A model generated the notes under the pieces. The model was given only the letters and a program-made list of their open reading frames with translations, did no database searches and had not been told where the DNA came from. This document shows positions 1,514 to 56,105 of a stretch of DNA of 64,000 bases, one piece after another. How positions within the stretch are numbered: the first letter of the stretch is position 1; each line of letters opens with the position of its first letter. A program made the translations under genes and the position numbers. Source of the stretch: Escherichia coli (GTDB taxonomy: Bacteria > Pseudomonadota > Gammaproteobacteria > Enterobacterales > Enterobacteriaceae). Location: the NCBI RefSeq assembly GCF_044647545.1, contig NZ_CP172818.1; one strand, given 5' to 3'.

Positions 1514-1525
1514 GGTAACTCCTTG

Positions 1526-2916: not shown

Positions 2917-3471
2917 ATGGCAAAGTACAACGAAAAAGAGCTGGCGGATACGAGCAAGTTTTTAAGTTTTGTCCTCCGACACAAACCGGAGGCGATTGGT
3001 ATCGTACTGGACCGTGAAGGATGGGCGGATATCGATAAGCTCATACTTTGTGCCCAAAAAGCGGGCAAGCGGTTAACCCGTGCATTGCGGGATACTGTGG
3101 TTGCCACCAGCGATAAAAAGCGTTTTAGTTATTCCAGTGATGGTAGGTGCATCCGCGCGGTTCAGGGGCATTCGACTTCGCAGGTCGCTATTTCCTTTGC
3201 CGAAAAAACACCGCCACAGTTTCTCTACCACGGTACGGCAAGCCGTTTCCTTGACGAGATAAAAAAACAGGGGCTGATTGCAGGTGAGCGTCACTACGTA
3301 CATCTCTCTGCTGATGAAGCAACGGCACGCAAAGTGGGAGCAAGACACGGATCGCCGGTTATTTTAACCGTCAAAGCACAGGAAATGGCGAAACGAGGCC
3401 TCCCTTTCTGGCAAGCGGAAAACGGGGTCTGGCTGACATCAACGGTTGCGGTTGAGTTTCTTGAGTGGTAA
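2917..3471 (+). CDS. kptA: RNA 2'-phosphotransferase (Tpt1/KptA family)
   Basis: 184-aa ORF recognised as KptA; length matches. Confidence 0.9.
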
Positions 3472-3483
3472 GGGAAACTTCCC

Positions 3484-4662
3484 TCATGAAGTGACCACTT
3501 GTAGCTTAAATAATTGCACTGTGCTGATAAGCGCAGCAATAAACAACGCCGCCGCGCCGCAGAGAGTGGCGCTGGCAAGCGCCGATGTTCCATTGCCGAG
3601 CATACTGGTCAGCGCCGGGCCGAGGATTTGCCCAATGCCGTAAATGAGCGTCACAAAGCCTAAAAGATTGAGATTTCCCGGTACGCTCAGTTGGCGGGCG
3701 ATAGTCATCACCAGAGATGTCGTGCCCATAAAGGTACCGCCAAAACCAAGACTGCTGATGATAAGCAAGAGAGGCGAGTCGCTGGCGAGAGTAAGCAGCA
3801 CACAGATAGCCTGCACCAGCAAATTCGCCGTCAGGCAGGGCAAAGCCCCCCAACGTTTTGCTGCCCATAGCCAGCCAAAGCAACCAGGCACAATTGATAA
3901 GCCGACTAACGTCCAGAGATGGGCGGTTAACAATGGTGAGCCTGCATCTTTCGCCATGAGCGGCAGGTAAGTCGCGACGATGATATAACCAAATCCCGCC
4001 AGGCCGTACAGAATAGCCAGTAACCACCAGCTCATTATCTGTTGCTCCGTTTTTGCCAATGGCATTGGTGTGATGGCGTGTTTTTTCGAGGGCATTAAAA
4101 GCGTAAGTGCAATCAGCATCATGCCAGAAAGCGCCCCGGCGCCTTGCCATAACGTTTGCGAGGAGAGGTCAAAATGCAGGCCTGCCAGAACATATTCATT
4201 GCCCAGTGCGATGCCAATGCCAACGCCAGAAAACAAAGCTGCCAGCACAAAAGGATGGCGCGTGTGCTGCATAATCAGCGTCGAACCAAAAATCAGCATA
4301 CCGGCGCTGGCGACACCCGCCAGGACGCGAATCAATAACACCAGAATAAATGGCGGCAACCATGCCATTGCGAGGATCAACAACCCGCTCGCCAGGGCAG
4401 AAGCCAACAGAAATGGGCGCAGGCGCGATGGCTGGTGAAATGCGCCAAAAGAAAATAGCAGACTGCCAGCCAGATACCCCGCATAGTTGCCGCTGGCAAT
4501 CCACGAGAGCTGGCTAAATGAAAACGATCCTTCCGCCATCATGACGGGCAACATAGGCGTATAAAGGAAGCGGCCTAAACCCATACCTAAGGTCAGAACC
4601 AGCATCCCGAAAAGCGCGGTGCTGAAAGAAAAGCGTTCTACGGGATGCGTGGACGAAGGCAT
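3484..4662 (-). CDS. yjiJ: MFS-family transporter YjiJ
   Basis: 392-aa ORF with about 12 hydrophobic segments. Confidence 0.85.
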
Positions 4663-4729
4663 GTTTAACCTTGTTTGTCATTTTTGTTGTTAACAAGTTA
4701 ATAACAAAAAGGTGAAGCATGCCAGCCTG

Positions 4730-6682
<1,953 letters not shown>

Positions 6683-6685
6683 TCC

Positions 6686-7858
6686 TTACAGCATCTCAAT
6701 AAAGGCCGCGACACGGGTACTGAGCTGCCCGACATCCGAGGTGGAGTAGTCTGTTTCAATAGCGATATAAGGAATGTTGTGCTGCTGGCGCACATGACGT
6801 TTAATCGCCAGCGATTCCACCGCGTAGGTATGGCACGCCTGCAAAATCACATCAACTACGCCATCGACCTGATATTCCTCCACCATCTGGCTGAGCATTT
6901 TCAGGCGCTGATCGTTCGGCGAAACACAGGAGCAGCCAATCGCCAGATATTTATCCGCCAGCGCGTCGTAGACATCGCCCGTTTCTGCCACGCATTGCTC
7001 GGTCGCTTTCGCCCCGGTGCAGTTTTCATAACCGACAACCCAGCCGCCATTCTCTTCAATCGCGCGCACCACTTTTTCTGCTGCGCCGCCAATCGGGCAG
7101 CCGGTGATTAAAATGCGCGGACGCGGGTCCAGTCGCTGGCCTTCTTCCCACTGCTGACGAACGCGGGCGGTCATTGCATCCAGTTCATTGATCAACGCCT
7201 CTTTATCGAACCGGAAGGTTGCGCCGTAAACCACTTTCAGAATGTCGCTGCCGCTAAGCGCCGGAGGATTTAACTGCCCAAGATGATAAAAATTAGCCAG
7301 TGCGCGACGTTCGCGGTTTTTCAGCGCAATGGCATCGCGCAGAGCATCTTCGCTAATCTCGTGCCCAAAACGTTCTTCTACCGTTTTTTGCAAGCGCAGC
7401 ATCTCGGCTTTCCATAACGCACGCGAGGCATCGTCCTTAACGCTGTTGGGCAATTGCATCACATGAACAGGCTTAAACTCCGCCATGTATTCATACATTT
7501 TCTTTTTGCCGTCGCAGGTGGTTTCACCGACCACCAGATCCGAAAAGTAGAAGTAGGGGCATTTATCGGTTTTGCCGAAGCCGTAGCTGCTTTTAATCAG
7601 CGGGCAGAGGTTGCGCGGCAGATCTTTCTCCGCTTCTTCAATGGTTTCATCAGAGGTGGAACAGAGCGAAACCACAACCGCACCGGCTGCCATCGGGATC
7701 TCTTGCGGCATAAAGGTGCAGTAAGTGCCAACCAGCGGAATGCCGCGCTCCTTGAGATCCATGACGGTGAGAAAGCCTGTCTGGCGAGCTTCAGAGAACT
7801 GATCGAAAATGGCGGGTAGATCGGTGACAAGTGACATGATTTTCCTTCCCCGTACCAC
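6686..7858 (-). CDS. yjiM: 2-hydroxyglutaryl-CoA dehydratase D-component-like protein
   Basis: 390-aa ORF, cysteine-rich; recognised as YjiM. Confidence 0.85.
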   Translation of the reverse strand: MVRGRKIMSLVTDLPAIFDQFSEARQTGFLTVMDLKERGIPLVGTYCTFMPQEIPMAAGAVVVSLCSTSDETIEEAEKDLPRNLCPLIKSSYGFGKTDKCPYFYFSDLVVGETTCDGKKKMYEYMAEFKPVHVMQLPNSVKDDASRALWKAEMLRLQKTVEERFGHEISEDALRDAIALKNRERRALANFYHLGQLNPPALSGSDILKVVYGATFRFDKEALINELDAMTARVRQQWEEGQRLDPRPRILITGCPIGGAAEKVVRAIEENGGWVVGYENCTGAKATEQCVAETGDVYDALADKYLAIGCSCVSPNDQRLKMLSQMVEEYQVDGVVDVILQACHTYAVESLAIKRHVRQQHNIPYIAIETDYSTSDVGQLSTRVAAFIEML

Positions 7859-7952
7859 GGGAGATAATGAAAAGAGGCCACATTATTACCATTCTTTTAG
7901 TATGGTTTATTTGATCTCTCTCGCGGTTAGCCACTTAGTTTTTCATGGATTT

Positions 7953-9233
7953 CTAAAAATTGCCGAGGGGGAACAAGGCCGGGAGCTGCGACAGCAAATA
8001 TAAAATTAGCCCAATACAACCGCCAACCAGCGTACCGTTGACACGAATAAACTGCAGATCTTTGCCGATATTTAACTCTATTTGCCGCGACATATCCCGC
8101 GCATCCCAGCTTTTTACCGTATCGCTGATGTGGCGCGTCAGGAATGCGGAAAACTCAGGCGCGACGCGGTGCGCGGCTTGTTCAAGATGACCATTTAACG
8201 ACGCCCGCAAGGCATCATCGGCAATTAACGTTTCGCCAAACCATTGACCCGCTCGTGCGATGCGTTCTTTCACACGAGAATCTTCACTGTTGATATCCAC
8301 TTTCAGCCATTCCCGTAAATCCCCCCACAATTCACTGAGATAGCGATTAAAAGCTTCATCTTCTTTCAGATAGCTTTTTACGGCATCGGCTCGCGCTGCC
8401 ATTTCCGGATCGTTTTTCAGCTTGTCGATCAGGGCGAAGGTGGCGCGATCAAACGCATGGCGGATCTGATGCGCACGATCGCGACTAATATCATCAAGCA
8501 AAGAATTCACCGCGTCAGAAACCAACTCCGCGCTATGTTCGCCCAACCATTCGGTGGGGAGAATTTTGGCTTTCAGTGGATGCTCGCTCTCCAGCCAGCG
8601 AACAATTTGCTGGGCGATAAACTTGCGCGATTTATCGCGCTGGAGAAGGGCGATCAACTGTGCGATCAGCGTATCCAGCAGCACCTGATGACGATCGTTT
8701 TTGGTCATACTCTCCAGCATCAACGCACTGGTGCCGGAAAGATCGACCTTATCAATCGCCCGATGGACCGCGCGCTTAAGCAGGCGCTGAATACGCGCAT
8801 CATCGGTAAGTTCGAGAAAACCGCTCATGATCTGCAACAGATGCTGACCAACGCGGCGGGCGTTTTCTGGCTGGCTAAACCAGTTGCCAATCAGCAACGC
8901 CGGTTCGTGGCGTCGAATCAATGCCACCAGGGATTGAGTATCAAGAAATTTTTCCTGCACGAACTGGCCGAGATTTTCGCCAATCCGGTCTTTATTACGC
9001 GGGATAATCGCCGTATGGCGAGAAATGATCGGAATCGGCACGCGGCGAAACAGCGCCACCACCGCAAACCAGTCCGCCAGCGCGCCGACCATCGCCGCTT
9101 CAGCAATCGCCTTCACGCCGCTCACCCAAAAATTGGGCGGCAAAAACAGCGTAACGACAAAGGTAGCAGCGGCGATAAGCAGTAAAGAGAGCGCCAACAT
9201 TTTGGCGCGTCTGAGTTCAATGAGTTTATTCAT
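7953..9233 (-). CDS. yjiN: DUF445 family inner membrane protein
   Basis: 426-aa ORF recognised as YjiN. Confidence 0.85.
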
Positions 9234-10478
9234 AACGTTAAGAATAGAGCCTGACGGCAGGATCGCGCAAAAATCACTGCTCCTCTGCCAGCTCGGCAGC
9301 CTGATGTTGGCGCACGCGATTAAGCAATCCCGCCAGGGTGAAAACGACGATAACGCCCGCCACGACGGCTAACAGATGAAACGGCAAGCGACCGCCGTTA
9401 AACCACAGCCACCGGCCGATTTCGACCGAGACAGACATCACCATCAGGATCACCATATTCAGCGATGCGGAGACGGTCCCTTTCGGTAAGTTATTGGAAA
9501 ACAGCGTAAAGCGGAATAAGGTCGGGAAGATCAAACCAATCCCGAAAGCATACAAACTGGTGCCCAGCACCGACCACAGCCATACGTGCGGTGACAGCAG
9601 ATTGCCGATAATCAACAGCGCGAGGCCAACCAGTTGAATGGGTACGGCACGCCAGATAAAGCGCGGTTCGGTCGGATCTTTAACGAAACGCGCCACGATG
9701 GCATTCGCGACAATCACCGCGCCGAACACCGGAACCTGTGTCCAGGCGAACTGCGAGGTCGTTAAGCCGCCTGCGTCAATCAGGATCACCGGCGAGACAG
9801 CCACCCAACTCATCATTGGGATATAGCTTAAAGAGATGGTTGCTGCACCAAAGAGGAACTGCCGATTGCAAAAGACATTACGAAAATCGCGCAAGACGCT
9901 TTTGGCGCTAAATGAAACCGCGCCGCGCTTCACCGTCTCTGGCATCGCCAGCAGTAAGCCAACAAATGAGATAAAACCCATAATCGCAATGATGGCAAAA
10001 AGGACTTTCCAGTGTACAAAGTGCATCAGAGCTGCGCCGGAAAGCGGGCCGATAATCGGCGCAATCAGTACGATGGAGGTGATAATCGCCATCAACCTGA
10101 TCCCTTTTGTCTGGCCGAACGCCTCCTGCACCGTGACATAACCAACGGTGGCAATAAAACAGATACTGGTGCCCTGAATTGCACGCGCGATAAGAAACTG
10201 TGTCATAGACGTTGTGAACATTGTCGCAGCGCAGGCAAGGGTAAATATTAGCGCCCCGGTAATCAGCACCGGCCTGCGGCCAATCCTGTCGGAAAGCGGC
10301 CCCAGCAGCCACTGTAACGCCATACCGCCCGCGAGATAGAGACTGACGGCTGCCGGGGCCAGACTGACATCGGCATTAAAATCACGGACCACATTAATGA
10401 TCCCCGGCTGAATCAGGTCCGTCGACAGGTACGCGGCAAAATCATACAAAATCAACGCCATCGGGAAAAACAGCGGGG

Positions 10479-11335
<857 letters not shown>

Positions 11336-11430
11336 AGGGGTTCTTCACGTTTGTGAAGGTGCCGAAACTGGATATGGACTATTGAGTGAAATGTCAGGCC
11401 GCAGATGCGGCGCCATCATCCGGCCCAAAA

Positions 11431-14957: not shown

Positions 14958-14985
14958 TAAGCGGTCAGTTTTGCGGTTGAGCGGC
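14958..14985 (-). promoter_or_regulatory. direct repeats matching the BtsR (YehT) LytTR-type motif upstream of btsT
   Basis: Minus-strand reading gives GCCGCTCA-N12-ACCGCTTA; compared with the published ACC(G/A)CT(C/T)A repeat from memory. Confidence 0.45.
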
Positions 14986-15013
14986 AAAGGCGTCGTTTAA
15001 GTGACGATAAATA

Positions 15014-15029
15014 TGTGATTCATATCACA
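15014..15029. promoter_or_regulatory. CRP binding site TGTGA-N6-TCACA
   Basis: Perfect consensus half-sites tgtgattcatatcaca in the btsT-tsr intergenic region. Confidence 0.6.
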
Positions 15030-15120
15030 TATTTATATTGTGAATAATTTATGTAAATAATGGCTTTTTAAATTCAGAGTGTGAATAAAATTACTCGGCG
15101 TAATCTCCGCGGGATATTCA

Positions 15121-29575: not shown

Positions 29576-29613
29576 AAAATCAAGGAAGAAACAAGAAAGG
29601 AAGTAAAGATAAT

Positions 29614-29700
29614 TGGTGCGAGGGGGGGGACTTGAACCCCCACGTCCGTAAGGACACTAACACCTGAAGCTAGCGCGTCTACCAATTCCGCCACCTTCGC
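29614..29700 (-). tRNA. leuV: tRNA-Leu (anticodon CAG)
   Basis: 87-nt reverse complement matches GCGAAGGTGGCGGAATTGGTAGACGCGCTAGCTTCAGGTGTTAGTGTCCTTACGGACGTGGGGGTTCAAGTCCCCCCCCTCGCACCA. Confidence 0.9.
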
Positions 29701-29734
29701 ACAGTCATCTTACTTTTTTTGATATCGCCTCGTT

Positions 29735-29821
29735 TGGTGCGAGGGGGGGGACTTGAACCCCCACGTCCGTAAGAACACTAACACCTGAAGCTAGCGCGTC
29801 TACCAATTCCGCCACCTTCGC
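29735..29821 (-). tRNA. leuP: tRNA-Leu (CAG), variable-arm variant (GTGTTCTTACGGAC instead of GTGTCCTTACGGAC)
   Basis: Same 87-nt tRNA with a single C-to-T change; pairing preserved as a G-U wobble. Confidence 0.85.
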
Positions 29822-29849
29822 CCAGTGCGAGCAATATCAACGTGGTTTT

Positions 29850-29936
29850 TGGTGCGAGGGGGGGGACTTGAACCCCCACGTCCGTAAGGACACTAACACC
29901 TGAAGCTAGCGCGTCTACCAATTCCGCCACCTTCGC
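29850..29936 (-). tRNA. leuQ: tRNA-Leu (anticodon CAG)
   Basis: Third tandem copy, identical to the first. Confidence 0.9.
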
Positions 29937-30084
29937 ATACCATCAATTCTTAAAAAGAATTGCTACCACGGAGGCGCATTCTAGTGGTTTTCAGCTTTTC
30001 GTCAATAGTTAATTATCGCCGGAGGTGTAATTGCTGGAAAAATGTCCATCAGGAAACTAGCGTGCAGGTTTGGTAGGCATGCGG

Positions 30085-30190
<106 letters not shown>

Positions 30191-30203
30191 TTCGGCGAGA
30201 TAA

Positions 30204-31235
30204 TTAACCTTTCTTCGCCTGGCGGGTCATAATGGCGCGATACACCTTGAAACGCCCGGTTTGCGCAATCACTTCATGGAAGCCAAATGTCTCATCCAGC
30301 ACGTCCGGGTAAGGCAGGAAGGCGTTCGCTACAATTCGCAGCTCGCCGCCGCTATTAAGATGACGCACCGCGCCGCGAATCAGCGTTTGCGCCGCATCCA
30401 GGCTGGTTTGCATCCCATCGTGGAACGGCGGGTTGGAGATGATCATATCAAAACGACCTTTCACCTCGGAAAAGACGTTGCTGGCAAAGACTTCACCTTC
30501 AACACCGTTGGCCGCAAGTGTTGCGCGGCTGGCTTCTACCGCTGGCGCAGAGACATCGCACAAGGTGAGACGAATTTTCGGCGAATGGCGCGCAAAGGCA
30601 ACTGAAAGCACACCCGCGCCACAGCCGACATCCAGCACTTTACCTTTCGTGTGCGGGGTTAACGTCGAGAGCAGCAACTGGCTACCGACATCCAGACCGT
30701 CGCGGCTAAACACGCCAGGCAGCGTTTTGACCGTCAGGCCATCGACGCTGTATTCGCCCCAGAATTTATCGGCATCAAATACCGGCTGTTTTTCCAGACG
30801 ACCAAAATAGAGGCCACAGCGACGAGCGCTGTCGACTTTATTCAACGGCGCATAATCTGCCAGCATCTGCTCGGCGCTGCGCACGCCGCTGCGGTTCTCG
30901 CCAACGACAAAAATATCTGTCCCCACTGGCAGCAGAGAAAGTAAATTCATCAACTGGAACTGGGCTTCCGGTTTGTTCTTCGGCCAGTAGTAAATCAGCG
31001 TATCGCAATCTGCGACGTCATCCACCGTGGCGACCAGACTGAAACGGGCGTTATCCCCCATCTGGCGGCTTAATACCTGCCAGTGGTGGAATTGCTGGGT
31101 ATGAGCACGGCTGGCCGCGGTATCTAAACGCGCGGGCAGGTCATCCTGTAAGTCTCCGGCAAACAGAATACGGCTTTGTTCGAAATCATCACTGTGACGC
31201 AGCAAGACTTCACTTGCCGGGGTAAATGCAGACAT
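30204..31235 (-). CDS. rsmC: 16S rRNA (guanine1207-N2)-methyltransferase
   Basis: 343-aa ORF with SAM-binding motif [11 protein letters not shown]; recognised as RsmC. Confidence 0.9.
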
Positions 31236-31337
31236 GGAATGCTCCTCAATTGATACTGGCGGCGATTATAGCCATATGTTGGCGCGGTATCGACGAATTT
31301 GCTATATTTGCGCCCCTGACAACAGGAGCGATTCGCT

Positions 31338-31751
31338 ATGACATCCCGACGAGACTGGCAGTTACAGCAACTGGGCATTACCCAGTGGTCGCTGCGTCGC
31401 CCTGGCGCGTTGCAGGGGGAGATTGCCATTGCGATCCCGGCACACGTCCGTCTGGTGATGGTGGCAAACGATCTTCCCGCCCTGACCGATCCTTTAGTGA
31501 GCGATGTTCTGCGCGCATTAACCGTCAGCCCCGATCAAGTGCTGCAACTGACGCCAGAAAAAATCGCGATGCTGCCGCAAGGCAGTCGCTGCAACAGCTG
31601 GCGGTTGGGTACTGACGAACCGCTATCACTGGAAGGCGCTCAGGTGGCATCACCGGCGCTCACCGAATTACGGGCAAACCCAACGGCACGCGCCGCGTTA
31701 TGGCAACAGATTTGCACATATGAACACGATTTCTTCCCTCGAAACGACTGA
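31338..31751 (+). CDS. holD: DNA polymerase III psi subunit
   Basis: 137-aa ORF MTSRRDWQLQQLGITQWSLRRP recognised as HolD. Confidence 0.9.
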   Translation: MTSRRDWQLQQLGITQWSLRRPGALQGEIAIAIPAHVRLVMVANDLPALTDPLVSDVLRALTVSPDQVLQLTPEKIAMLPQGSRCNSWRLGTDEPLSLEGAQVASPALTELRANPTARAALWQQICTYEHDFFPRND

Positions 31752-32166
31752 TTTACCAGCGGCTTACCACATTGAACAACGCGCCCACGCCTTTCCGTGG
31801 AGTGAAAAAACCTTTGCCAGCAACCAGGGCGAGCGTTATCTCAACTTTCAGTTAACGCAAAACGGCAAAATGGCGGCGTTTGCGATTACGCAAGTGGTGC
31901 TGGATGAAGCTACATTGTTCAATATTGCGGTCGATCCTGACTATCAGCGTCAGGGATTGGGAAGGGTGCTGCTGGAACATCTGATCGACGAACTGGAAAA
32001 ACGCGGCGTGGCGACGCTCTGGCTGGAAGTCCGTGCCTCAAATGCTGCCGCCATTGCCCTGTACGAAAGTTTAGGCTTTAACGAGGCGACGATTCGCCGC
32101 AATTACTACCCCACCACGGACGGTCGCGAAGACGCCATCATCATGGCGTTGCCAATCAGTATGTAA
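31720..32166 (+). CDS. rimI: ribosomal protein S18 alanine N-acetyltransferase
   Basis: 148-aa GNAT ORF ([13 protein letters not shown]); overlaps holD 3' end. Confidence 0.9.
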
Positions 32167-32180
32167 GACAAGGTGGAATA

Positions 32181-32858
32181 ATGAAGTGGGACTGGATTTT
32201 CTTTGATGCCGATGAAACGCTGTTTACCTTTGACTCATTCACCGGCCTGCAGCGGATGTTTCTTGATTACAGCGTCACCTTTACCGCTGAAGATTTTCAG
32301 GACTATCAGGCCGTTAACAAGCCACTGTGGGTGGATTATCAAAACGGCGCGATCACTTCATTACAGCTTCAGCACGGGCGTTTCGAGAGCTGGGCCGAAC
32401 GGCTGAAAGTTGAAGCAGGCTTGCTTAACGATGCCTTTATTAATGCGATGGCGGAAATCTGCACGCCGCTGCCGGGCGCGGTTTCTCTGCTTAACGCCAT
32501 TCGTGGCAACGCCAAAATCGGCATCATCACCAACGGCTTTAGCGCCTTGCAGCAAGTGCGTCTGGAACGCACGGGCCTGCGTGATTACTTCGATTTGCTG
32601 GTGATTTCCGAAGAAGTTGGCGTTGCTAAACCGAATAAGAAAATTTTCGATTATGCGCTGGAACAGGCGGGCAATCCTGACCGTTCACGCGTGCTGATGG
32701 TTGGCGACACTGCCGAGTCCGATATTCTCGGTGGCATCAACGCCGGGCTTGCGACCTGCTGGCTGAATGCGCACAATCGCGAGCAACCAGAAGGCATCGC
32801 GCCCACCTTGACCGTTTCTTCGTTGCACGAACTGGAGCAGCTCCTGTGTAAACACTGA
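32181..32858 (+). CDS. yjjG: HAD-family pyrimidine 5'-nucleotidase (dUMP phosphatase)
   Basis: 225-aa ORF with HAD motif FFDADETLF. Confidence 0.9.
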
Positions 32859-32948
32859 TTGCCTCCCCCCCGTTGATGGGTAAAATAGCCGCAATTTTTC
32901 GTTTTCAACAAGCGCGGCGCGATGCCGCTTACTCAAGAAGAAAGAATT

Positions 32949-34538
32949 ATGACGTTGTCTCCTTATTTGCAAGAGGTGGCTAAGCGCCGCACTTTTGCCA
33001 TTATTTCTCACCCGGACGCCGGTAAGACTACCATCACCGAGAAGGTGCTGCTGTTCGGACAGGCCATTCAGACCGCCGGTACAGTAAAAGGCCGTGGTTC
33101 CAACCAGCACGCTAAGTCGGACTGGATGGAGATGGAAAAGCAGCGTGGGATCTCCATTACTACGTCTGTGATGCAGTTTCCGTATCACGATTGCCTGGTT
33201 AACCTGCTAGACACCCCGGGGCACGAAGACTTCTCGGAAGATACCTATCGTACCCTGACGGCGGTGGACTGCTGCCTGATGGTTATCGACGCCGCAAAAG
33301 GTGTTGAAGATCGTACCCGTAAGCTGATGGAAGTTACCCGTCTGCGCGACACGCCGATCCTCACCTTTATGAACAAACTTGACCGTGATATCCGCGACCC
33401 GATGGAACTGCTCGATGAAGTTGAGAACGAGCTGAAAATCGGCTGCGCACCGATCACCTGGCCGATTGGCTGCGGCAAGCTGTTTAAAGGCGTTTACCAC
33501 CTTTATAAAGACGAAACCTATCTCTATCAGAGCGGTAAAGGTCACACCATTCAGGAAGTCCGCATTGTTAAAGGGCTGAATAACCCGGATCTCGATGCTG
33601 CGGTTGGTGAAGATCTGGCGCAGCAGCTGCGTGACGAACTGGAACTGGTGAAAGGCGCGTCTAACGAGTTCGACAAAGAATTGTTCCTTGCGGGCGAAAT
33701 CACTCCGGTATTCTTCGGTACTGCGCTGGGTAACTTCGGTGTCGATCATATGCTGGATGGCCTGGTGGAGTGGGCTCCTGCGCCGATGCCGCGTCAGACT
33801 GATACCCGTACCGTAGAAGCGAGCGAAGACAAATTTACCGGCTTCGTATTTAAAATTCAGGCCAACATGGACCCGAAACACCGCGACCGCGTGGCGTTTA
33901 TGCGCGTGGTATCCGGTAAATATGAAAAAGGCATGAAGCTGCGCCAGGTGCGCACCGCGAAAGACGTGGTGATCTCTGACGCGCTGACCTTTATGGCGGG
34001 TGACCGTTCGCACGTTGAAGAAGCGTATCCTGGCGATATCCTCGGCCTGCACAACCACGGCACCATTCAGATCGGCGACACCTTTACCCAGGGTGAGATG
34101 ATGAAGTTCACCGGTATTCCGAACTTCGCACCAGAACTGTTCCGTCGTATCCGCCTGAAAGATCCGCTGAAGCAAAAACAGCTGCTCAAAGGGCTGGTAC
34201 AGCTTTCCGAAGAGGGCGCGGTGCAGGTGTTCCGTCCGATCTCCAACAACGATCTGATCGTTGGTGCAGTTGGTGTGCTGCAGTTTGATGTAGTGGTATC
34301 GCGCCTGAAGAGCGAATACAACGTTGAAGCAGTATATGAATCAGTCAACGTTGCCACCGCCCGCTGGGTAGAATGTGCAGACGCGAAGAAATTCGAAGAG
34401 TTCAAGCGTAAGAACGAAAGCCAACTGGCGCTTGATGGCGGCGATAACCTCGCTTACATCGCTACCAGCATGGTCAACCTGCGCCTGGCGCAGGAACGTT
34501 ATCCGGACGTTCAGTTCCACCAGACCCGCGAGCATTAA
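32949..34538 (+). CDS. prfC: peptide chain release factor 3 (GTPase)
   Basis: 529 aa from [28 protein letters not shown]; G1 and DTPGHEDF G-motifs. Confidence 0.9.
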
Positions 34539-34930
34539 TTCTTGCCTCCAGGGCGCGGTAGCCGCTGCGCCCTGTCAATTTCCCTTCCTTATTAGCCGCT
34601 TACGGAATGTTCTTAAAACATTCACTTTTGCTTATGTTTTCGCTGATATCCCGAGCGGTTTCAAAATTGTGATCTATATTTAACAAAGTAATGACATTTC
34701 TGACGGCGTTAAATACCGTTCAATGCGTAGATATCAGTATCTAAAGCCGTCGATTGTCATTCTACCGATATTAATAACTGATTCAGAGGCTGTAATGGTC
34801 GTTATTCATCACCCATCGCTTTTGTGATGGCGACCATTGACTTCTGTAGAGGGTGAAGTCTCTCCCTATTCAGCAATGCAACCTCGTGTTGCCAGGCTCA
34901 AATTACGAGCAAACATACAGGAATAAATCG

Positions 34931-35536
34931 ATGACTATGACAAGACTGAAGATTTCGAAAACTCTGCTGGCTGTAATGTTGACCTCTGCCGTCGCGACCG
35001 GCTCTGCCTACGCGGAAAACAACGCACAGACTACCAATGAAAGCGCAGGGCAAAAAGTCGATAGCTCTATGAATAAAGTCGGTAATTTCATGGATGACAG
35101 CGCCATCACCGCGAAAGTGAAGGCGGCGCTGGTGGATCATGACAACATCAAGAGCACCGATATCTCTGTCAAAACCGATCAAAAAGTCGTGACCCTGAGC
35201 GGTTTCGTTGAAAGCCAGGCTCAGGCCGAAGAGGCAGTGAAAGTGGCGAAAGGCGTTGAAGGGGTGACCTCTGTCAGCGACAAACTGCACGTTCGCGACG
35301 CTAAAGAAGGCTCTGTGAAGGGCTACGCGGGTGACACCGCCACCACCAGTGAAATCAAAGCCAAACTGCTGGCGGACGATATCGTCCCTTCCCGTCATGT
35401 GAAAGTTGAAACCACCGACGGCGTGGTTCAGCTCTCCGGTACCGTCGATTCCCAGGCACAGAGCGACCGTGCTGAAAGTATCGCCAAAGCGGTAGATGGT
35501 GTGAAAAGCGTTAAAAATGATCTGAAAACTAAGTAA
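34931..35536 (+). CDS. osmY: periplasmic osmotically inducible protein OsmY (two BON domains)
   Basis: 201 aa from [28 protein letters not shown] (signal peptide); recognised as OsmY. Confidence 0.9.
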
Positions 35537-35664
35537 TTCGTCGTAATTCGTCCTCCCGAACTTTGTCGGGAGGCGCGATGTGCACCACACTAAAAATATC
35601 GCATTGAGTGATTTTCACGCTCATATCAAGCGGTGACATTAACTATGGTAAAGGAGACGCTTAT

Positions 35665-35826
35665 ATGTTTCGTTGGGGCATCATATTTCTGGTTATCGCG
35701 TTAATCGCCGCCGCACTTGGGTTTGGTGGTCTGGCCGGTACTGCTGCAGGCGCAGCTAAAATTGTCTTTGTCGTCGGGATTATTCTGTTCCTGGTGAGTT
35801 TGTTCATGGGCCGAAAACGACCCTAG
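35665..35826 (+). CDS. ytjA: small membrane protein YtjA (DUF1328)
   Basis: 53-aa [25 protein letters not shown] with RBS aaaggagacg upstream. Confidence 0.75.
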
Positions 35827-35857
35827 ATTTCAGACCATTAAGAAAATTTTATCCAAA

Positions 35858-35880
35858 GCCAGTCCAGCGGACTGGCTTTT
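35858..35880 (+). terminator. intrinsic terminator after ytjA
   Basis: gccagtcc-agcg-gactggc followed by tttt. Confidence 0.65.
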
Positions 35881-35946
35881 GCGGTTTTAGCGAATAATAA
35901 ATTGCGTTACTTTGTCATTCTTTCACAACAAAACAGGAAGGCAGAG

Positions 35947-37020
35947 GTGGGGCAGCGAATACCTGTAACGCTTGGTAATATTGCGCCGTTGTCGCTAAGG
36001 CCGTTCCAGCCTGGACGAATAGCTCTGGTGTGCGAAGGCGGCGGGCAGCGTGGAATTTTCACAGCTGGCGTGCTGGATGAGTTTATGCGCGCGCAGTTTA
36101 ATCCTTTCGATCTTTATCTCGGCACATCTGCCGGGGCGCAGAACCTCTCGGCGTATATCTGCAATCAGCCCGGTTACGCGCGCAAAGTCATCATGCGCTA
36201 TACCACAAAACGCGAATTTTTCGATCCATTGCGCTTTGTCCGTGGAGGAAATCTTATCGATCTCGACTGGCTGGTGGAGGCCACCGCAAGCCAGATGCCG
36301 TTGCAAATGGACACCGCAGCGCGGCTATTTGACAGCGGCAAATCGTTTTATATGTGCGCCTGTCGTCAGGATGACTACGCGCCGAATTACTTTTTACCAA
36401 CCAAACAAAACTGGCTGGATGTGATTCGCGCCTCCAGTGCAATACCTGGCTTTTATCGTAGCGGAGTGTCGCTGGAAGGCATTAATTACCTGGATGGCGG
36501 GATCAGTGATGCGATCCCGGTTAAAGAGGCGGCAAGGCAGGGCGCAAAAACGTTGGTCGTTATCCGCACTGTGCCGTCACAAATGTACTATACGCCGCAG
36601 TGGTTCAAACGCATGGAACGCTGGCTGGGTGACAGTAGCCTGCAGCCGCTGGTCAATCTGGTGCAGCATCATGAAACCAGCTATCGTGAGATTCAGCAAT
36701 TTATTGAGAAACCACCGGGCCAGTTGAGGATATTCGAAATTTATCCGCCGAAGCCATTACATAGTATCGCGCTCGGCAGTCGGATTCCGGCGCTGCGTGA
36801 AGACTATAAACTTGGGCGTTTATGCGGGCGTTATTTTCTGGCAACGGTCGGTAAGTTATTGACTGAAAAAGCGCCGCTGAGCCGCCATCTGGTGCCGGTG
36901 GTGACGCCGGAGTCGATCGTTATTCCGCCTGCACCCGTCGCCAACGATACGCTGGTTACCGAGGTGATAGACGCTCCACAGGCGAACGACCCGACATTTA
37001 ACAATGAGGATTTGGCTTGA
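35947..37020 (+). CDS. yjjU: patatin-like phospholipase YjjU
   Basis: GTG start; CEGGGQRG and GTSAG patatin motifs. Confidence 0.8.
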   Translation: MGQRIPVTLGNIAPLSLRPFQPGRIALVCEGGGQRGIFTAGVLDEFMRAQFNPFDLYLGTSAGAQNLSAYICNQPGYARKVIMRYTTKREFFDPLRFVRGGNLIDLDWLVEATASQMPLQMDTAARLFDSGKSFYMCACRQDDYAPNYFLPTKQNWLDVIRASSAIPGFYRSGVSLEGINYLDGGISDAIPVKEAARQGAKTLVVIRTVPSQMYYTPQWFKRMERWLGDSSLQPLVNLVQHHETSYREIQQFIEKPPGQLRIFEIYPPKPLHSIALGSRIPALREDYKLGRLCGRYFLATVGKLLTEKAPLSRHLVPVVTPESIVIPPAPVANDTLVTEVIDAPQANDPTFNNEDLA

Positions 37021-37901
37021 TTTGCCGTTTTATCGACACCCACTGCCATTTTGATTTCCCGCCGTTTAGTGGCGATGAAGAGGCCAGCCTGCAACGCGCG
37101 GCACAAGCGGGCGTAGGCAAGATCATTGTTCCGGCCACCGAGGCGGCAAATTTTGCCCGCGTGCAGGCGTTAGCGGAAAATTATCAACCGCTGTATGCCG
37201 CTTTAGGGTTGCATCCGGGGATGTTGGAAAAACATAGCGATGTGTCTCTTGATCAGTTACAGCAGGCGTTGGGAAGACGTCCGACGAAGGTGGTGGCGGT
37301 GGGGGAGATCGGCCTGGATCTCTTTGGTGACGATCCGCAATTTGAGAGGCAGCAGTGGTTGCTTGATGAACAACTGAAACTGGCGAAACGCTACGATCTG
37401 CCGGTGATCCTTCATTCACGGCGCACGCACGACAAACTGGCGATGCATCTTAAACGCCAAAATTTGCCACGCACTGGTGTGGTTCATGGTTTTTCTGGCA
37501 GCCTGCAACAGGCCGAACGGTTTGTGCAGCTGGGCTACAAAATTGGCGTAGGCGGTACTATCACCTATCCACGCGCCAGTAAAACCCGCGATGTCATCGC
37601 AAAGCTGCCGCTGGCATCGATGTTGCTGGAGACCGACGCACCAGATATGCCGCTCAATGGTTTTCAGGGGCAGCCTAATCGCCCTGAACAGGCCGCCCGT
37701 GTGTTTGCCGTGCTGTGCGAGTTACGCCCGGAACCCGCGGATGAGATTGCCGAAGTGTTGCTTAATAACACGTATGCGGTGTTTAACGTTCGTGGAGCCG
37801 AGCCGAAGCGCACGCACGCAGCACAACGAGCCCCTAGTCTGCCCTTCGTAAGCCGGATAAGGCGTTCACACCGCATCCGGCAGTCGACGCACAATGCCTG
37901 A
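37017..37901 (+). CDS. yjjV: TatD-family metal-dependent hydrolase YjjV; 3' end uncertain because the ORF runs into a REP array
   Basis: IDTHCHFDF TatD motif at the N-terminus; C-terminal ~30 codons are encoded by REP sequence. Confidence 0.75.
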   Translation: MICRFIDTHCHFDFPPFSGDEEASLQRAAQAGVGKIIVPATEAANFARVQALAENYQPLYAALGLHPGMLEKHSDVSLDQLQQALGRRPTKVVAVGEIGLDLFGDDPQFERQQWLLDEQLKLAKRYDLPVILHSRRTHDKLAMHLKRQNLPRTGVVHGFSGSLQQAERFVQLGYKIGVGGTITYPRASKTRDVIAKLPLASMLLETDAPDMPLNGFQGQPNRPEQAARVFAVLCELRPEPADEIAEVLLNNTYAVFNVRGAEPKRTHAAQRAPSLPFVSRIRRSHRIRQSTHNA

Positions 37902-38050
37902 TGCGACGCTGACGCGTCTTATCATGCCTACAAGTCTGTGCCGAACCGTAGGCCGGATAAGGCGTTCACGCCGCATCCGGCAGTTGGCGCACAATGCCTG
38001 ATGCGACGCTGACGCGTCTTATCATGCCTACAGGTCTGTGCCGAACCGTA
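37845..38050. repeat. tandem REP/BIME array (two ~105-bp units)
   Basis: Two near-identical units gccggataaggcgttcac.ccgcatccggcagt...gatgcgacgctgacgcgtcttatcatgcctaca.gtctgtgccgaaccgtagg. Confidence 0.85.
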
Positions 38051-38055
38051 GGCTG

Positions 38056-38919
38056 TCACAAATACAGCGCCGGAAATATCAACCGGCTCACCCCGTGCTC
38101 CCGTAACGCATCAGCCAATTGCTCAACGTCTTCCGGCGTGGCGCTCGCCCAGCTTTGCGCCTCGCCATACACGCCGTGGGCATGAAACGCGTTCAGGCGT
38201 ACCGGAACATCGCCAAGTCCCTTGATAAACGCCGCCAGCTCATCGATATGCTGCAAATAATCCACGTGGCCTGGGATTACCAGCAAACGCAGTTCTGCCA
38301 GTTTGCCGCGCTCGGCAAGCAGACTAATGCTGCGCTTGATCTGCTGATTATCGCGTCCGGTTAGCTGTTGATGGCACGCGCCACCCCACGCTTTGAGGTC
38401 GAGCATCGCGCCGTCGCATACCGGGAGTAATTTTTCCCAGCCGGTTTCGCTCAACATGCCGTTACTGTCCACCAGACAGGTGAGATGACACAGTTGTGGA
38501 TCATTTTTGATAGCAGTAAACAGCGCCACCACAAACGGCAACTGGGTCGTGGCTTCACCGCCGCTTACCGTTATCCCTTCAATAAACAGCACCGCTTTGC
38601 GGACGTGACTAAGCACCTCGTCCACGTTCATGGATTGCGCCATCGGCGTAGCGTGTTGTGGACACATCTTCAGGCAGGTATCACACTGCTCGCAGACGGC
38701 TGCGTTCCACACTACTTTGCTGTTAACAATCTGCAACGCCTGATGCGGACACTGTGGCACGCACTCCCCGCAATCATTACAGCGCCCCATTGTCCACGGA
38801 TTGTGACAGTTTTTGCAGCGCAGATTACAGCCCTGTAAAAACAGAGCCAGACGACTGCCTGGCCCGTCAACGCAGGAGAAGGGGATAATCTTACTGACTA
38901 AAGCGCATCTGCTGTTCAT
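38056..38919 (-). CDS. yjjW: glycyl-radical enzyme activating protein (radical SAM)
   Basis: 287-aa ORF with CxxxCxxC radical-SAM cluster plus extra Cys-rich ferredoxin-like motifs. Confidence 0.85.
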
Positions 38920-40441
38920 GGCTTATCACGCGCGACTGGCGTTCCAGAATACGAGTGTTGCGTGCGGCTTCTTCTCCCAGCCAGGTGGTATTGGTACGTG
39001 AACCTTCGGCACGATATTTTTCTAAATCCGACAAACGCACCATATAACCGGTAACGCGAACCAGATCGTTACCGCTGACATTGGCGGTAAATTCACGCAT
39101 TCCGGCTTTAAAGGCACCGAGGCAAAGCTGTACCAGCGCCTGCGGATTACGTTTGATGGTTTCGTCGAGCGTCAAAATGTCGCTGATGCCGGAATAATAA
39201 TAAGCATGATGCGGGGCGACAGTTTGCAGATGGGTGATCGGATCTGGCTCATCGCCATACGGCAAACGCGCGCCCGGCGTGGTGCCGATATCGGAACTTA
39301 TCCCCGACTGTGCGTGTAGCATGGCGCGATTTTGCCAGCCATATTTCACGGGGGTATTGGCGACAAACTCCGCCAGTTGCGCGCTGATGCGATAACCCAC
39401 TTCATTTGCAGCGGCTTCTTTACCGTAACGTGCGGCAATTCCTTCTTTCTCACACAACAAGTTAACCGCTTCTGCCAGTCCGTACATGCCAAACATTGGC
39501 ACAAAACGTTCAGGGTTAATCAGCCCTTCTTTCACCAGGAAGCTATTCTCAAAGAAGTGTGATTGTTGATAGAGGAATTCACACCGCGCATCGATGATGG
39601 CGATTTGCTGCTGGCAGTAGTGCGGTAGAGTGCGCGTAAAGAAATCATCCAGCGATTCACTGCGCTCGGCAATGGCTTTCAGGTTAAGGCGTACCAGCGT
39701 GCTGCCACCACCCGCCAGCGGCAGTGAGTTGTAACAGCTCACAATCCCGTAGCCCCCTTTTGTGAAAATTTTATCATGCACGGGACCGTTGGCGATGTGC
39801 GGTTTGCTACATTCACAGATGTTTTTCGCCACTTCCAGCAGCAGGTCATCAGGGGTGATTTCAGGATCGTAGATAAAAGTCAGGTTCGGTGAAACCTGCT
39901 TCAGCTCTGAATCTGCCCGTAAAATCGCACGGGTAATGGGCGAATCAGACGGGCCAATATTGGCGTGCATAAAGGCATCTGGCAGGGTTCTATCGAGGTA
40001 ACGCCAGAAACGTTTTATTCGAATATCGATCTCGTTTTGTGTTAGAATTCTAACATACGGTTGCAACAACGCATCCAGTTGCCCCAGGTAGACCGGCATC
40101 GATGTGACCGAAGGAACGTGGTGGTAAAGAATGGTCAGCAGAGAGAGTGCGTCATCAAGATCTTTTGCGCCTTCCAGCTCCAGCCATTCGGAACCGTTGG
40201 CCAAAAAACGGGCGTAATCGGGTAAGACATAGCGCGGTTTATACGGCGCATGACCTTCAAACATATCGCAGATTACACCTTCATCCAGCGCGCGGCGGGC
40301 TTCGGCAGGAAGCTGTGGGTAAGGCAGATTGTTTTCTGCTTCCAGCGCCAGAAAATGGCGCTTCTGCTCCGGGCTAAGTACCGGACTGGTGACAATTTGC
40401 TGGCAACGTTGTTGCAGTGCATTTTCATGAGAAGTGGGCAT
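38891..40441 (-). CDS. yjjI: glycine-radical-enzyme-like protein YjjI (DUF3029)
   Basis: 516 aa from [15 protein letters not shown]; overlaps the yjjW start. Confidence 0.85.
40040..40055. promoter_or_regulatory. DeoR operator (deoP1 region), 16-bp palindrome TGTTAGAATTCTAACA
   Basis: Perfect palindrome; lies inside the yjjI coding region, 600 bp upstream of the second operator. Confidence 0.8.
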
Positions 40442-40639
40442 CTTCTGTTCCTTTTTATGCCGAAGGTGATGCGCCATTGTAAGAAGTTTCGTGATGTTCA
40501 CTTTGATCCTGATGCGTTTGCCACCACTGACGCATTCATTTGAAAGTGAATTATTTGAACCAGATCGCATTACAGTAATGCAATTTTGTAAGTAGATTTC
40601 CTTAATTGTGATGTATATCGAAGTGTGTTGCGGAGTCGA

Positions 40640-40655
40640 TGTTAGAATACTAACA
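40640..40655. promoter_or_regulatory. DeoR operator (deoP2 region) TGTTAGAATACTAACA
   Basis: Near-perfect palindrome about 45 bp upstream of the deoC ATG. Confidence 0.8.
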
Positions 40656-40699
40656 AACTCGCAAGGTGAATTTTATTGGCGACAAGCCAGGAGAATGAA

Positions 40700-41479
40700 A
40701 TGACTGATCTGAAAGCAAGCAGCCTGCGTGCACTGAAATTGATGGACCTGACCACCCTGAATGACGACGATACCGACGAGAAAGTGATCGCTCTGTGTCA
40801 TCAGGCCAAAACTCCGGTCGGTAATACCGCCGCTATCTGTATCTATCCTCGCTTTATCCCGATTGCTCGCAAAACGCTGAAAGAGCAGGGCACCCCGGAA
40901 ATCCGTATCGCTACGGTAACTAACTTCCCACACGGTAACGACGACATCGAAATCGCGCTGGCAGAAACCCGTGCGGCAATCGCCTACGGTGCCGATGAAG
41001 TTGATGTGGTGTTCCCGTACCGTGCACTGATGGCGGGTAACGAGCAGGTTGGTTTTGATCTGGTGAAAGCCTGTAAAGAGGCTTGCGCAGCAGCGAATGT
41101 ACTGCTGAAAGTGATCATCGAAACCGGCGAACTGAAAGACGAAGCGCTGATCCGCAAAGCGTCTGAAATATCCATTAAAGCGGGTGCTGATTTCATCAAA
41201 ACCTCTACCGGTAAAGTAGCAGTGAACGCGACGCCGGAAAGCGCGCGCATCATGATGGAAGTGATCCGTGATATGGGCGTAGAGAAAACCGTTGGTTTCA
41301 AACCGGCGGGCGGCGTGCGTACTGCGGAAGATGCGCAGAAATATCTCGCGATTGCAGATGAACTGTTCGGTGCTGACTGGGCTGATGCGCGTCACTACCG
41401 CTTTGGTGCTTCCAGCCTGCTGGCAAGCCTGCTGAAAGCGCTGGGCCACGGCGACGGTAAGAGCGCCAGCAGCTACTAA
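40700..41479 (+). CDS. deoC: deoxyribose-phosphate aldolase
   Basis: 259 aa from [26 protein letters not shown]; recognised as DeoC. Confidence 0.95.
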
Positions 41480-41618
41480 GCTGCCTTTTGCCAGAGGGTG
41501 GATGCTATGGGTCGAGTACCCCTGTAGGCCTGATAAGATGCGTCAGCATTGCATCAGGCAATAACAACATCCGCCATCTGGCAACAACGCCTTCAAACTT
41601 ATTCCACGGGAGGTTACC

Positions 41619-42941
41619 TTGTTTCTCGCACAAGAAATTATTCGTAAAAAACGTGATGGTCATGCGCTGAGCGATGAAGAAATTCGCTTCTTTATCAACG
41701 GCATTCGCGACAACACTATCTCCGAAGGGCAGATTGCCGCCCTCGCGATGACCATTTTCTTCCACGATATGACAATGCCGGAGCGTGTCTCGCTGACCAT
41801 GGCGATGCGAGATTCAGGAACCGTTCTCGACTGGAAAAGCCTGCATCTGAATGGCCCGATTGTTGATAAACACTCCACCGGCGGCGTCGGCGATGTGACT
41901 TCGCTGATGTTAGGGCCGATGGTGGCTGCCTGCGGCGGCTATATTCCGATGATCTCCGGTCGCGGCCTCGGCCATACTGGCGGTACGCTCGACAAACTGG
42001 AATCCATCCCTGGCTTCGACATCTTCCCGGATGACAACCGTTTCCGCGAAATTATTAAAGATGTTGGCGTGGCGATTATCGGCCAGACCAGCTCGCTGGC
42101 TCCGGCGGATAAACGTTTCTATGCGACCCGCGACATTACCGCAACCGTGGATTCCATCCCGCTTATCACCGCCTCGATCCTGGCGAAGAAACTGGCGGAA
42201 GGTCTGGATGCGCTGGTGATGGACGTGAAAGTCGGTAGCGGCGCGTTTATGCCGACCTACGAACTCTCTGAAGCCCTTGCCGAAGCGATTGTTGGCGTGG
42301 CTAACGGTGCTGGCGTGCGCACCACCGCGCTACTCACCGACATGAATCAGGTGCTGGCCTCCAGTGCCGGTAACGCGGTTGAAGTTCGTGAAGCGGTGCA
42401 GTTCCTGACTGGTGAGTATCGTAACCCGCGTCTGTTTGATGTCACGATGGCACTGTGCGTGGAGATGTTGATCTCCGGCAAACTGGCGAAAGATGACGCC
42501 GAAGCGCGCGCGAAATTGCAGGCGGTGCTGGACAACGGTAAAGCGGCAGAAGTCTTTGGTCGTATGGTAGCGGCACAAAAAGGCCCGACCGACTTCGTTG
42601 AGAACTACGCGAAGTATCTGCCGACAGCGATGCTGACGAAAGCAGTCTATGCTGATACCGAAGGTTTTGTCAGTGAAATGGATACCCGCGCGCTGGGAAT
42701 GGCAGTGGTTGCAATGGGCGGCGGTCGCCGTCAGGCATCTGACACCATCGATTACAGCGTCGGCTTTACTGATATGGCGCGTCTGGGCGACCAGGTAGAC
42801 GGTCAGCGTCCGCTGGCGGTTATCCACGCGAAAGACGAAAACAGCTGGCAGGAAGCGGCGAAAGCGGTGAAAGCGGCAATTAAACTTGCCGATAAAGCAC
42901 CGGAAAGCACACCGACTGTCTATCGCCGTATCAGCGAATAA
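41619..42941 (+). CDS. deoA: thymidine phosphorylase (TTG start)
   Basis: 440-aa [24 protein letters not shown] with SD gggagg upstream. Confidence 0.95.
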
Positions 42942-42971
42942 CGGTATACTGATCTGATCATTTAAATTTGA

Positions 42972-44216
<1,245 letters not shown>

Positions 44217-44272
44217 TGGATTTGGGCGGAGCAGTGACTCCGCCTTTAATATGTCACAAAAAGGATAAAATG

Positions 44273-44992
44273 ATGGCTACTCCACACATTAATGCAGAAA
44301 TGGGCGATTTCGCTGACGTAGTTTTGATGCCAGGCGACCCGCTGCGTGCGAAGTATATTGCTGAAACTTTCCTTGAAGATGCTCGTGAAGTGAACAACGT
44401 TCGCGGTATGCTGGGCTTCACCGGTACTTACAAAGGCCGCAAAATTTCTGTAATGGGCCACGGTATGGGTATCCCGTCCTGCTCCATCTACACTAAAGAA
44501 CTGATCACCGATTTCGGCGTGAAGAAAATCATTCGCGTTGGTTCCTGTGGTGCAGTTCTGCCGCACGTAAAACTGCGTGACGTAGTGATTGGTATGGGTG
44601 CCTGCACCGATTCCAAAGTTAACCGCATCCGTTTTAAAGACCATGACTTTGCAGCTATCGCTGACTTCGACATGGTGCGTAACGCAGTAGATGCAGCTAA
44701 AGCACTGGGCATTGATGCGCGCGTTGGTAACCTGTTCTCCGCTGACCTGTTCTACTCTCCGGACGGCGAAATGTTCGACGTGATGGAAAAATACGGCATT
44801 CTCGGTGTGGAAATGGAAGCTGCTGGTATCTACGGCGTCGCTGCAGAATTCGGCGCGAAAGCCCTGACCATCTGCACCGTGTCTGACCACATCCGCACTC
44901 ACGAGCAGACCACTGCCGCTGAGCGTCAGACCACCTTCAACGACATGATCAAAATCGCACTGGAATCCGTTCTGCTGGGCGATAAAGAGTAA
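44273..44992 (+). CDS. deoD: purine nucleoside phosphorylase
   Basis: 239 aa from [33 protein letters not shown]. Confidence 0.95.
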
Positions 44993-45025
44993 TTGTGTTT
45001 CGCTGAAAGGCGATTGTCGTGTGAA

Positions 45026-45054
45026 GCCGGAGCGGGAGACCGCTCCGGCTTTTT
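45026..45054 (+). terminator. intrinsic terminator of the deo operon
   Basis: gccggagcgg-gaga-ccgctccggc followed by ttttt. Confidence 0.8.
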
Positions 45055-45187
45055 AGTATTTATTCATCAATAGCAACTGATTTATAGATTCACTATTATT
45101 TTTCATATGGATAGAAAATTAAATCCATTCGAGTATCTTCACGAATCTTCAGCCCCAAAAATAACTAACTCATTTATCAACAGCGAG

Positions 45188-50639: not shown

Positions 50640-51010
<371 letters not shown>

Positions 51011-51039
51011 GACGAAACTGCTCAAAGGTGAGGTATAAA

Positions 51040-51267
51040 ATGAGTTTTTTTGATGAGTTGAAAACCTCTCTGGAAGAGGCTGTCGAGATTAAACAAGGTT
51101 TAAAAGAACCTGCACGGGTGACCCGCTACGAAATTGCGGATGTTAAAGCTATTCGTGAGCAACTCAACTTTCGCAAATGTGATCAAAGCCGCAACTGGCA
51201 ATCAAAGCTAAAACTGATGCGAAGAAATCCTACGGGATATTGGCCAAAAGTACTTCCACAATTATAG
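51040..51267 (+). CDS. orphan HTH (XRE/HigA-like) antitoxin-like ORF, C-terminal half degenerate; possible pseudogene or non-native sequence
   Basis: N-terminus MSFFDELKTSLEEAVEIKQGLKEPARVTRYEIADVKAIREQL resembles XRE-type antitoxins; the downstream HTH is not intact; RBS aaaggtgagg and TTGACG upstream. Confidence 0.3.
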   Translation: MSFFDELKTSLEEAVEIKQGLKEPARVTRYEIADVKAIREQLNFRKCDQSRNWQSKLKLMRRNPTGYWPKVLPQL

Positions 51268-51314
51268 AAAATCCTGCCTTTTTTCGGAACTTCCCCATTA
51301 ATATTTAACTATTA

Positions 51315-55245: not shown

Positions 55246-56105
<860 letters not shown>

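Follow-up and report, generated by a model that had tools for sequence, protein, structure and literature searches.

The extended yjjV reading frame in one Escherichia coli record probably reflects a sequence flaw ahead of a REP array

Introduction

In the stretch of Escherichia coli DNA analysed here (the window, 64,000 nt), the reading frame of yjjV does not stop where its enzyme domain ends. It continues into a tandem array of REP elements. An earlier note on this DNA, made from the sequence alone, offered two accounts of this: a REP had been inserted at the original stop codon, which lengthened the protein, or the arrangement was specific to the strain. What makes the frame run on is the question addressed here.

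The window is a piece of E. coli chromosome that runs from yjiH through mdtM, btsT, tsr, dnaCT, prfC, osmY, yjjU-yjjV, yjjW-yjjI and deo onward to creD. All the components of the yjjV locus are known. They are a hydrolase of the YjjV/TatD family, a BIME between convergent genes and a REP that abuts a stop codon.

Results

The yjjV frame (Table 1) begins with a TTG codon that overlaps the stop of yjjU. This start position agrees with the annotation in the genomes of ECONIH1 and K-12. The earlier note had remarked that the frame enters the REP array and finds no stop until 37901, and this was confirmed. The translated C-terminus reads ...LLNNTYAVFNVRGAEPKRTHAAQRAPSLPFVSRIRRSHRIRQSTHNA, also written ...NNTYAVFNVRGAEPKRTHAAQRAPSLPFVSRIRRSHRIRQSTHNA. 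The run-on past the usual end of yjjV amounts to 34 codons.

The domain itself is complete. The Pfam profile PF01026 (TatD_DNase) was matched from position 1 to 253 of its 253 positions by residues 6–257 (E = 2e-74), and the score of 250.6 bits, against a gathering cut-off of 27, marks this as a full-length match. The structure of K-12 YjjV (PDB ID: 1ZZM, 259 aa) aligns to residues 1–258 with E = 7e-165. The domain is thus finished by about residue 258, as had been proposed. Orthology to K-12 YjjV is clear both from the sequence and from the gene order yjjU-yjjV-yjjW; ECONIH1 and K-12 are annotated with the same neighbours. The usual length of the protein is 259 aa (K-12, 1ZZM) or 260 aa (ECONIH1), close to the 259 residues against which the note had suggested checking the reference protein, and the 294 aa of the window's product lie outside this range. 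All surplus residues are outside the TatD_DNase domain.

The tail is of mixed origin. An orphan segment supplies residues 261–272 together with two bases, the first and second, of codon 273. Residues 274–279 are encoded by a spacer that is 3′ UTR in relatives, and about the last 15 residues (about 280–294) are encoded by REP sequence. The earlier claim of a REP-encoded tail therefore stands for residues from about 280 to 294 and does not apply to residues 261–279. The 34-residue tail is strongly basic, with a computed pI of 12 and a charge of about +7.

Table 1. Positions of the features at the yjjV-yjjW locus, in window coordinates unless another sequence is named.
Feature	Position	Strand	Remarks
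yjjV ORF	37017..37901	+	Encodes 294 aa from a TTG start; ends with TGA (37899-37901)
TatD_DNase domain, complete, residues 6-257	37032..37787	+	PF01026; 1ZZM alignment
Orphan segment, net +38 nt, encodes residues 261-273	37796..37834	+	Alignment to ECONIH1
Ancestral yjjV stop TAG, out of frame	37835..37837	+	End of ECONIH1 yjjV CDS
Spacer of 9 nt from ancestral stop to REP array; translated here (within SLPFV)	37838..37846	+	
BIME-type array, two 100-nt units, between convergent yjjV and yjjW	37847..38053	+	
Y-type REP hairpin 1, wholly within the extended ORF	37852..37881	+	Encodes about RIRRSHRIR
Z-type REP 1	37896..37931	+	5′ arm holds the ORF-ending TGA, 37899-37901
Y-type REP hairpin 2	37952..37981	+	
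Z-type REP 2	37996..38031	+	
yjjW, glycine radical enzyme activase	38056..38919	-	Convergent with yjjV
Natural 275/276-aa yjjV alleles with REP-encoded tails	L006 1201-2028; L008 1201-2031; L009 147-974		1-nt indels before the stop

The array occupies the gap between the 3′ ends of yjjV and yjjW. Its two units are 95% identical, and each consists of one Y-type and one Z-type REP. The Y-type motif GCCGGATAAGGCGTTCAC(A/G)CCGCATCCGGC is present twice, as is the Z-type GCCTGATGCGACGCTGACGCGTCTTATCATGCCTAC. The palindromes are imperfect, measure about 30–36 nt and match the E. coli REP consensus quoted in PMC12306157. A probe containing the array matched at a median of at least 35 places per E. coli genome, as expected of a many-copy element. 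The RNA fold of the array has an energy of −114 kcal mol−1 (z = −3.2).

BIME arrays between convergent genes have been described (PMC2817692; PMC12306157), and the array in the window resembles them in its alternating Y- and Z-type REPs and in a copy number that varies between strains. The array itself is ordinary; only the reading frame that enters it is unusual. In ECONIH1 the array lies in the same place and is base-for-base identical, including the 12 nt that precede it. It is extragenic there. In the frame of the window the first REP falls within the ORF, and in K-12 the stop codon overlaps a REP. In alleles of the K-12 type the first REP itself contains the stop TAG (AAC GTG CCG TAG GCCGGATAAGG; K-12, L002 2270-2700). 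The window has two units of the array and K-12 has about four of 100 nt.

Where a REP lies 15 nt or less from a stop codon, terminating ribosomes are reported to stall and expression to fall (Liang, Rudd & Deutscher 2015, as related in PMC12306157). The marks of this class are ribosome stalling and a down-regulation that depends on tmRNA. The ancestral TAG of yjjV lies 9 nt from the repeat unit and 14 nt from the first REP stem. By position, the ancestral gene would therefore fall in this stop-proximal class; in K-12 the TAG lies inside the REP. The frame of the window differs from the class, as it would run through the first REP instead of stopping before it.

The alignment to ECONIH1 locates the change. 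There, yjjV encodes 260 aa, and the gene ends ...AAC GTT CGT GGG TAG TCTGCCCTTCGTAAGCCGGATAAGG... with the protein sequence ...NVRG*. Where ECONIH1 has one G, the window has 39 nt, AGCCGAGCCGAAGCGCACGCACGCAGCACAACGAGCCCC (37796-37834), a net gain of 38 nt. The yjjV locus is identical to ECONIH1 on both sides of these 39 nt, and from 37835 to 45148 there are 0 mismatches. Without the 39 nt, the junction sequence is GTTCGTGGGTAGTCTG; the insert can be recognised by the sequence GCCGAAGCGCACGCACGCAGCACAACG. The TAG of ECONIH1 is retained at 37835-37837 but is out of frame, being read as ..C/CT AGT.. in the window. Judged by this alignment, the actual cause of the extended frame is the 39-for-1 replacement, because it lies upstream of the TAG, shifts the frame and hides the stop codon.

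The replacement shows no target-site duplication and no terminal repeats, and there is no second copy of the segment in the 64-kb window. RNA folding gave no notable hairpin in the insert; the strong structure is that of the REP array. The segment contains 72% G+C and no T, which puts it in the top 1.2% of clean 39-nt stretches for G+C. In this it resembles an orphan stretch of 69% G+C at 11152-11296 that is plain junk (see below). The segment is short, has normal complexity and perfect flanks, and is not smeared into homopolymers. The lack of T was considered as proof of junk and is not decisive: the T-free run at the insert, 41 nt long, is unusual, but two natural T-free runs of 42 nt occur in btsT and are common to strain 300709.

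Several origins for the 39 nt were considered, and the evidence supports none of them. Transposition of a mobile element or of a REP is not consistent with the absence of flanking repeats, with the single copy in the window and no copy in E. coli genomes, or with a similarity to REP sequence that does not rise above background. By eye, the insert seemed to resemble a noisy copy, with many deletions, of the spacer and REP downstream of it, such as an untrimmed contig overlap might leave. Gapped alignments, with and without T removed from the target, ranked the match between the insert and the downstream 90–100 nt anywhere from 42nd to 3,395th of 12,752 tiles, depending on the parameters, and many random tiles of the window aligned equally well. 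A tandem duplication or other templated origin fails likewise, since the similarity to adjacent or local sequence is not above that of background tiles.

The segment is also exceptionally rare. It was found in 0 of 5,426 complete RefSeq E. coli genomes. With a 161-nt probe across the insert, the best coverage among these genomes was 76%, which corresponds to the probe minus 38 nt, and the flanks of the probe were matched at 99% or more in 472 records. Searches of E. coli chromosomes and plasmids gave no meaningful homologue of the insert, only chance matches of 23–24 nt in phage tail genes (E of 2 to 8). The PLSDB plasmid collection gave no match. Exact 24- to 27-mers of the insert were absent from the GTDB species representatives, the JGI metagenomes and the IMG/VR viral contigs. 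Only a single NCBI contig, 4,499,902 bp long, carries the exact 294-aa product. The proposal of a strain-specific arrangement is borne out to this extent. The note had also named orthologues with the same tail as evidence against its reading; among 5.8 billion, no cluster representative has the tail peptide.

Shorter relatives of the extended protein do exist. The 90% cluster of the 294-aa protein includes YjjV variants of 275 aa, ending in ...NVRGSLPFVGSIRQSAHNA, and of 276 aa, ending in ...NVPVGRIRRSRRIRQLAHNA. Comparison of the DNA showed that the 275-aa allele has lost one nucleotide immediately ahead of the TAG (GGG to GG). The 276-aa allele arises by a 1-nt insertion (CCG to CCCG) in an allele of the K-12 type. 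Both enter the REP in the same frame as the window and end in ...HNA*. The 275-aa allele is an ordinary annotated CDS in RefSeq strain 33F4 and is present in 3 of the 5,426 complete genomes. The form is also found on further contigs, with 13 variant 275-aa sequences in the 90% cluster.

These alleles share with the window the gene, the frame after the shift, the untouched TatD domain and the terminal ...HNA with the TGA in AATGCCTGATGCG. Their tails are encoded by the 3′ UTR and the REP, as is the downstream part of the window's tail. They differ in their cause. The natural alleles are known from several isolates and owe their tails to 1-nt indels that lie at most one or two codons from the stop, whereas the window has a 39-for-1 replacement that is seen once and adds 13 residues unrelated to anything.

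The record that holds the window is corrupt elsewhere. The nearest complete genome around yjjV is ECONIH1 (99.6% identity over 30000-45000). Compared with ECONIH1 and strain 300709, the window is clean and has almost no indels outside three sites. These private anomalies are the yjjV insert and two patches at 10480-11424 and 50696-51303.

In the first patch, the sequence departs without transition from the 5′ end of mdtM and decays into runs of G, the longest of them 116 nt. The patch includes the 145 nt of orphan sequence at 11152-11296, and it closes with a deletion-rich version of the 3′ end of mrr. From 11425 onward the sequence is 100% identical to strain 300709. Relatives have IS1 with brnT/brnA, or the hsd-mrr region, at this position.

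The second patch is a garbled copy of the relE/parE-like toxin gene and nadS antitoxin gene of ECONIH1. Bases are progressively swapped for their neighbours until the sequence is poly-A (an A run of 30 nt). The stretch 51008-51168 is perfect again, and 51169-51303 is noisy. The garbling creates an ORF of 75 aa. This ORF has one record in the protein collection, on the same 4,499,902-bp NCBI contig as the 294-aa product. The corruption is therefore in the public record. Both junk patches overlie modules that are toxin-antitoxin systems in relatives (brnTA and relE/parE-nadS). The reason may lie in thin read coverage over islets of this kind when the source was assembled, or the overlap may be a coincidence.

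Discussion

From the lesion at yjjV, its uniqueness and the corruption nearby, all of them observed, we infer that the 39 nt are themselves corruption, and that the insert is probably an assembly artefact or sequence error in the public record. This explanation is favoured because the insert is seen once and has no source sequence that could be found, because the other two private anomalies of the window are plain junk, and because there is no plausible bacterial mechanism for adding 39 untemplated bases. A replacement of 39 nt for one that lacks a target-site duplication, terminal repeats and any second copy fits no ordinary mechanism of insertion in bacteria. The 72% G+C and the likeness to the orphan junk also point toward an artefact, though they are suggestive only. 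Uncorrected low-quality stretches of draft or hybrid genome assemblies have the same general appearance, with orphan and compositionally skewed sequence in an otherwise clean record. The yjjV segment differs from them in that it is short and not homopolymeric, and its status as junk is one that we infer. Its normal complexity, its perfect flanks and the lack of a demonstrable origin as a copy of its neighbours count against an artefact, as does the fact that natural frameshift alleles with REP-encoded tails reach the same outcome.

A flaw in the public record, rather than the biology of REPs, would thus lie behind the extended frame. The net gain of 38 nt would put the true stop TAG out of frame, and a gene caller would then meet no stop in the 3′ UTR spacer or in the first REP and would continue to the TGA in ...AATGCCTGATGCG. 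The REP is open in the shifted frame and would yield the 34-residue basic tail. The actual strain most likely makes the normal YjjV of 260 aa, which ends in ...NVRG.

It is possible, though doubtful, that the 39-for-1 replacement is a real private mutation. It would then be a frameshift at codon 260/261 that leaves an intact TatD domain followed by the 34-residue tail. The intact domain, the perfect flanks and an insert that is not of low complexity are what such a mutation would be expected to show, and the 275- and 276-aa alleles have independently reached the same frame and the same ...HNA* stop. Against this, no source for the 39 nt is found in E. coli, plasmids, GTDB species representatives, metagenomes or viral contigs, and the allele is confined to a single contig, in a record with proven junk. 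We know of no route by which E. coli, to our knowledge without NHEJ or a terminal transferase, could acquire 39 nt of untemplated sequence, and we count this against a real mutation. If the mutation were real, the tail would probably be disordered, and the allele, like the rare natural ones of 275 and 276 aa, would be close to neutral or slightly deleterious. A stronger form of the idea holds that the 39 nt are captured foreign or untemplated DNA, placed one codon before the stop of an expressed TatD-family enzyme that has thereby gained a new, highly basic and partly REP-encoded tail. Together with the 275- and 276-aa alleles, this would make of the yjjV/REP junction a small natural hotspot at which a REP that stays put is drawn time and again into coding sequence. 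We regard this as improbable.

Insertion of a REP at or over the original yjjV stop, the other account in the earlier note, fares worse and is very improbable. The K-12-type alleles, whose stop TAG lies in the first REP, show that REP sequence may adjoin the end of yjjV or even provide it, which keeps the idea from being far-fetched for the gene in general. In the window, however, the array has not moved. ECONIH1, with the same array preceded by the same 12 nt, uses the TAG 9 nt upstream, and the sole difference from ECONIH1 lies upstream of that TAG, in an insert that aligns to REP sequence no better than to random parts of the window. The comparison with ECONIH1 rules the insertion out for the window. 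Least credible of all is the reading that YjjV has a functional C-terminal extension in the basic, REP-encoded tail and that selection has favoured it. Similar ...HNA tails are present in at least three independent alleles, but every such allele is rare, and a low frequency in the population argues against selection. The frameshifts differ among the alleles, whose tails share an end for no other reason than that the REP, read in that frame, encodes it. The major alleles stop after 259 or 260 aa, and no orthologue elsewhere has such a tail.

What is left to account for the extended frame is either an error in the record or a further rare frameshift, of which RefSeq already has examples. Palindromic repeats that add coding sequence to genes are known, as in the Rickettsia palindromic elements and in MITEs that supply C-termini or stops. 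The likeness to yjjV is that repeat-derived sequence forms part of an ORF. In those systems the element inserts in frame, whereas at yjjV the repeat has stayed in place and it is the reading frame that has moved.

With a sequence error as the probable explanation, it would be wrong to treat the 294-aa 'YjjV' as a new form of the protein, and the value of the finding is in annotation hygiene. This is a public 4.5-Mb E. coli record in which junk creates false genes and, within the window, destroys mdtM, mrr and the relE/parE-nadS module. One small point is more general. The Y-type REP is open in one frame, which closes only with the TGA that the next REP provides (...HNA*), and any −1 or +2 shift near a stop codon just before such a REP therefore gives a stereotyped arginine-rich tail ending in HNA. 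Gene callers will report such tails, and a few natural alleles truly carry them.

Should the insert be real, the core of the enzyme would be intact and the 34 added residues most likely a disordered extension. Ribosomes would open the first REP hairpin and terminate inside the second, which would leave the second BIME unit as the remaining 3′ structure. The stalling of ribosomes and the lower expression reported for stop-proximal REPs might change once the stop lay within the array.

Other features of the window

The relatedness of the window to other strains is mosaic. Positions 1-10479 are 99.9% identical to strain 300709, and the stretch 37835-45148 that is identical to ECONIH1 is about 95–97% identical to 300709. 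This pattern is consistent with recombination between lineages. At 14985-15116 the hpa (4-hydroxyphenylacetate) cluster of roughly 11 kb is absent, as in strain 300709; ECONIH1 has this cluster between btsT and tsr. At 45148-45181 about 290 nt with a small helix-turn-helix gene are missing, and about 33 nt of other sequence stand there instead. This gene is present between deoD and lplA in both ECONIH1 and strain 300709.

In ECONIH1, a 5-nt tandem duplication (AGTAG) shifts the frame of yjjI, which is annotated as a pseudogene (L003 26574). The window has no such duplication at 39616, and its yjjI frame is open (an ORF of 559 codons). Three tandem tRNA-Leu genes lie at 29613-29937, as placed by alignment to the ECONIH1 annotation, and are followed at 30155-30184 by a lone REP-like palindrome, GTCGGATAAGGCGTTCACGCCGCATCCGAC. 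At 55579, a 3-nt (GAT) deletion relative to ECONIH1 falls in the overlap of trpR and yjjX. It is in frame and looks like an ordinary polymorphism.
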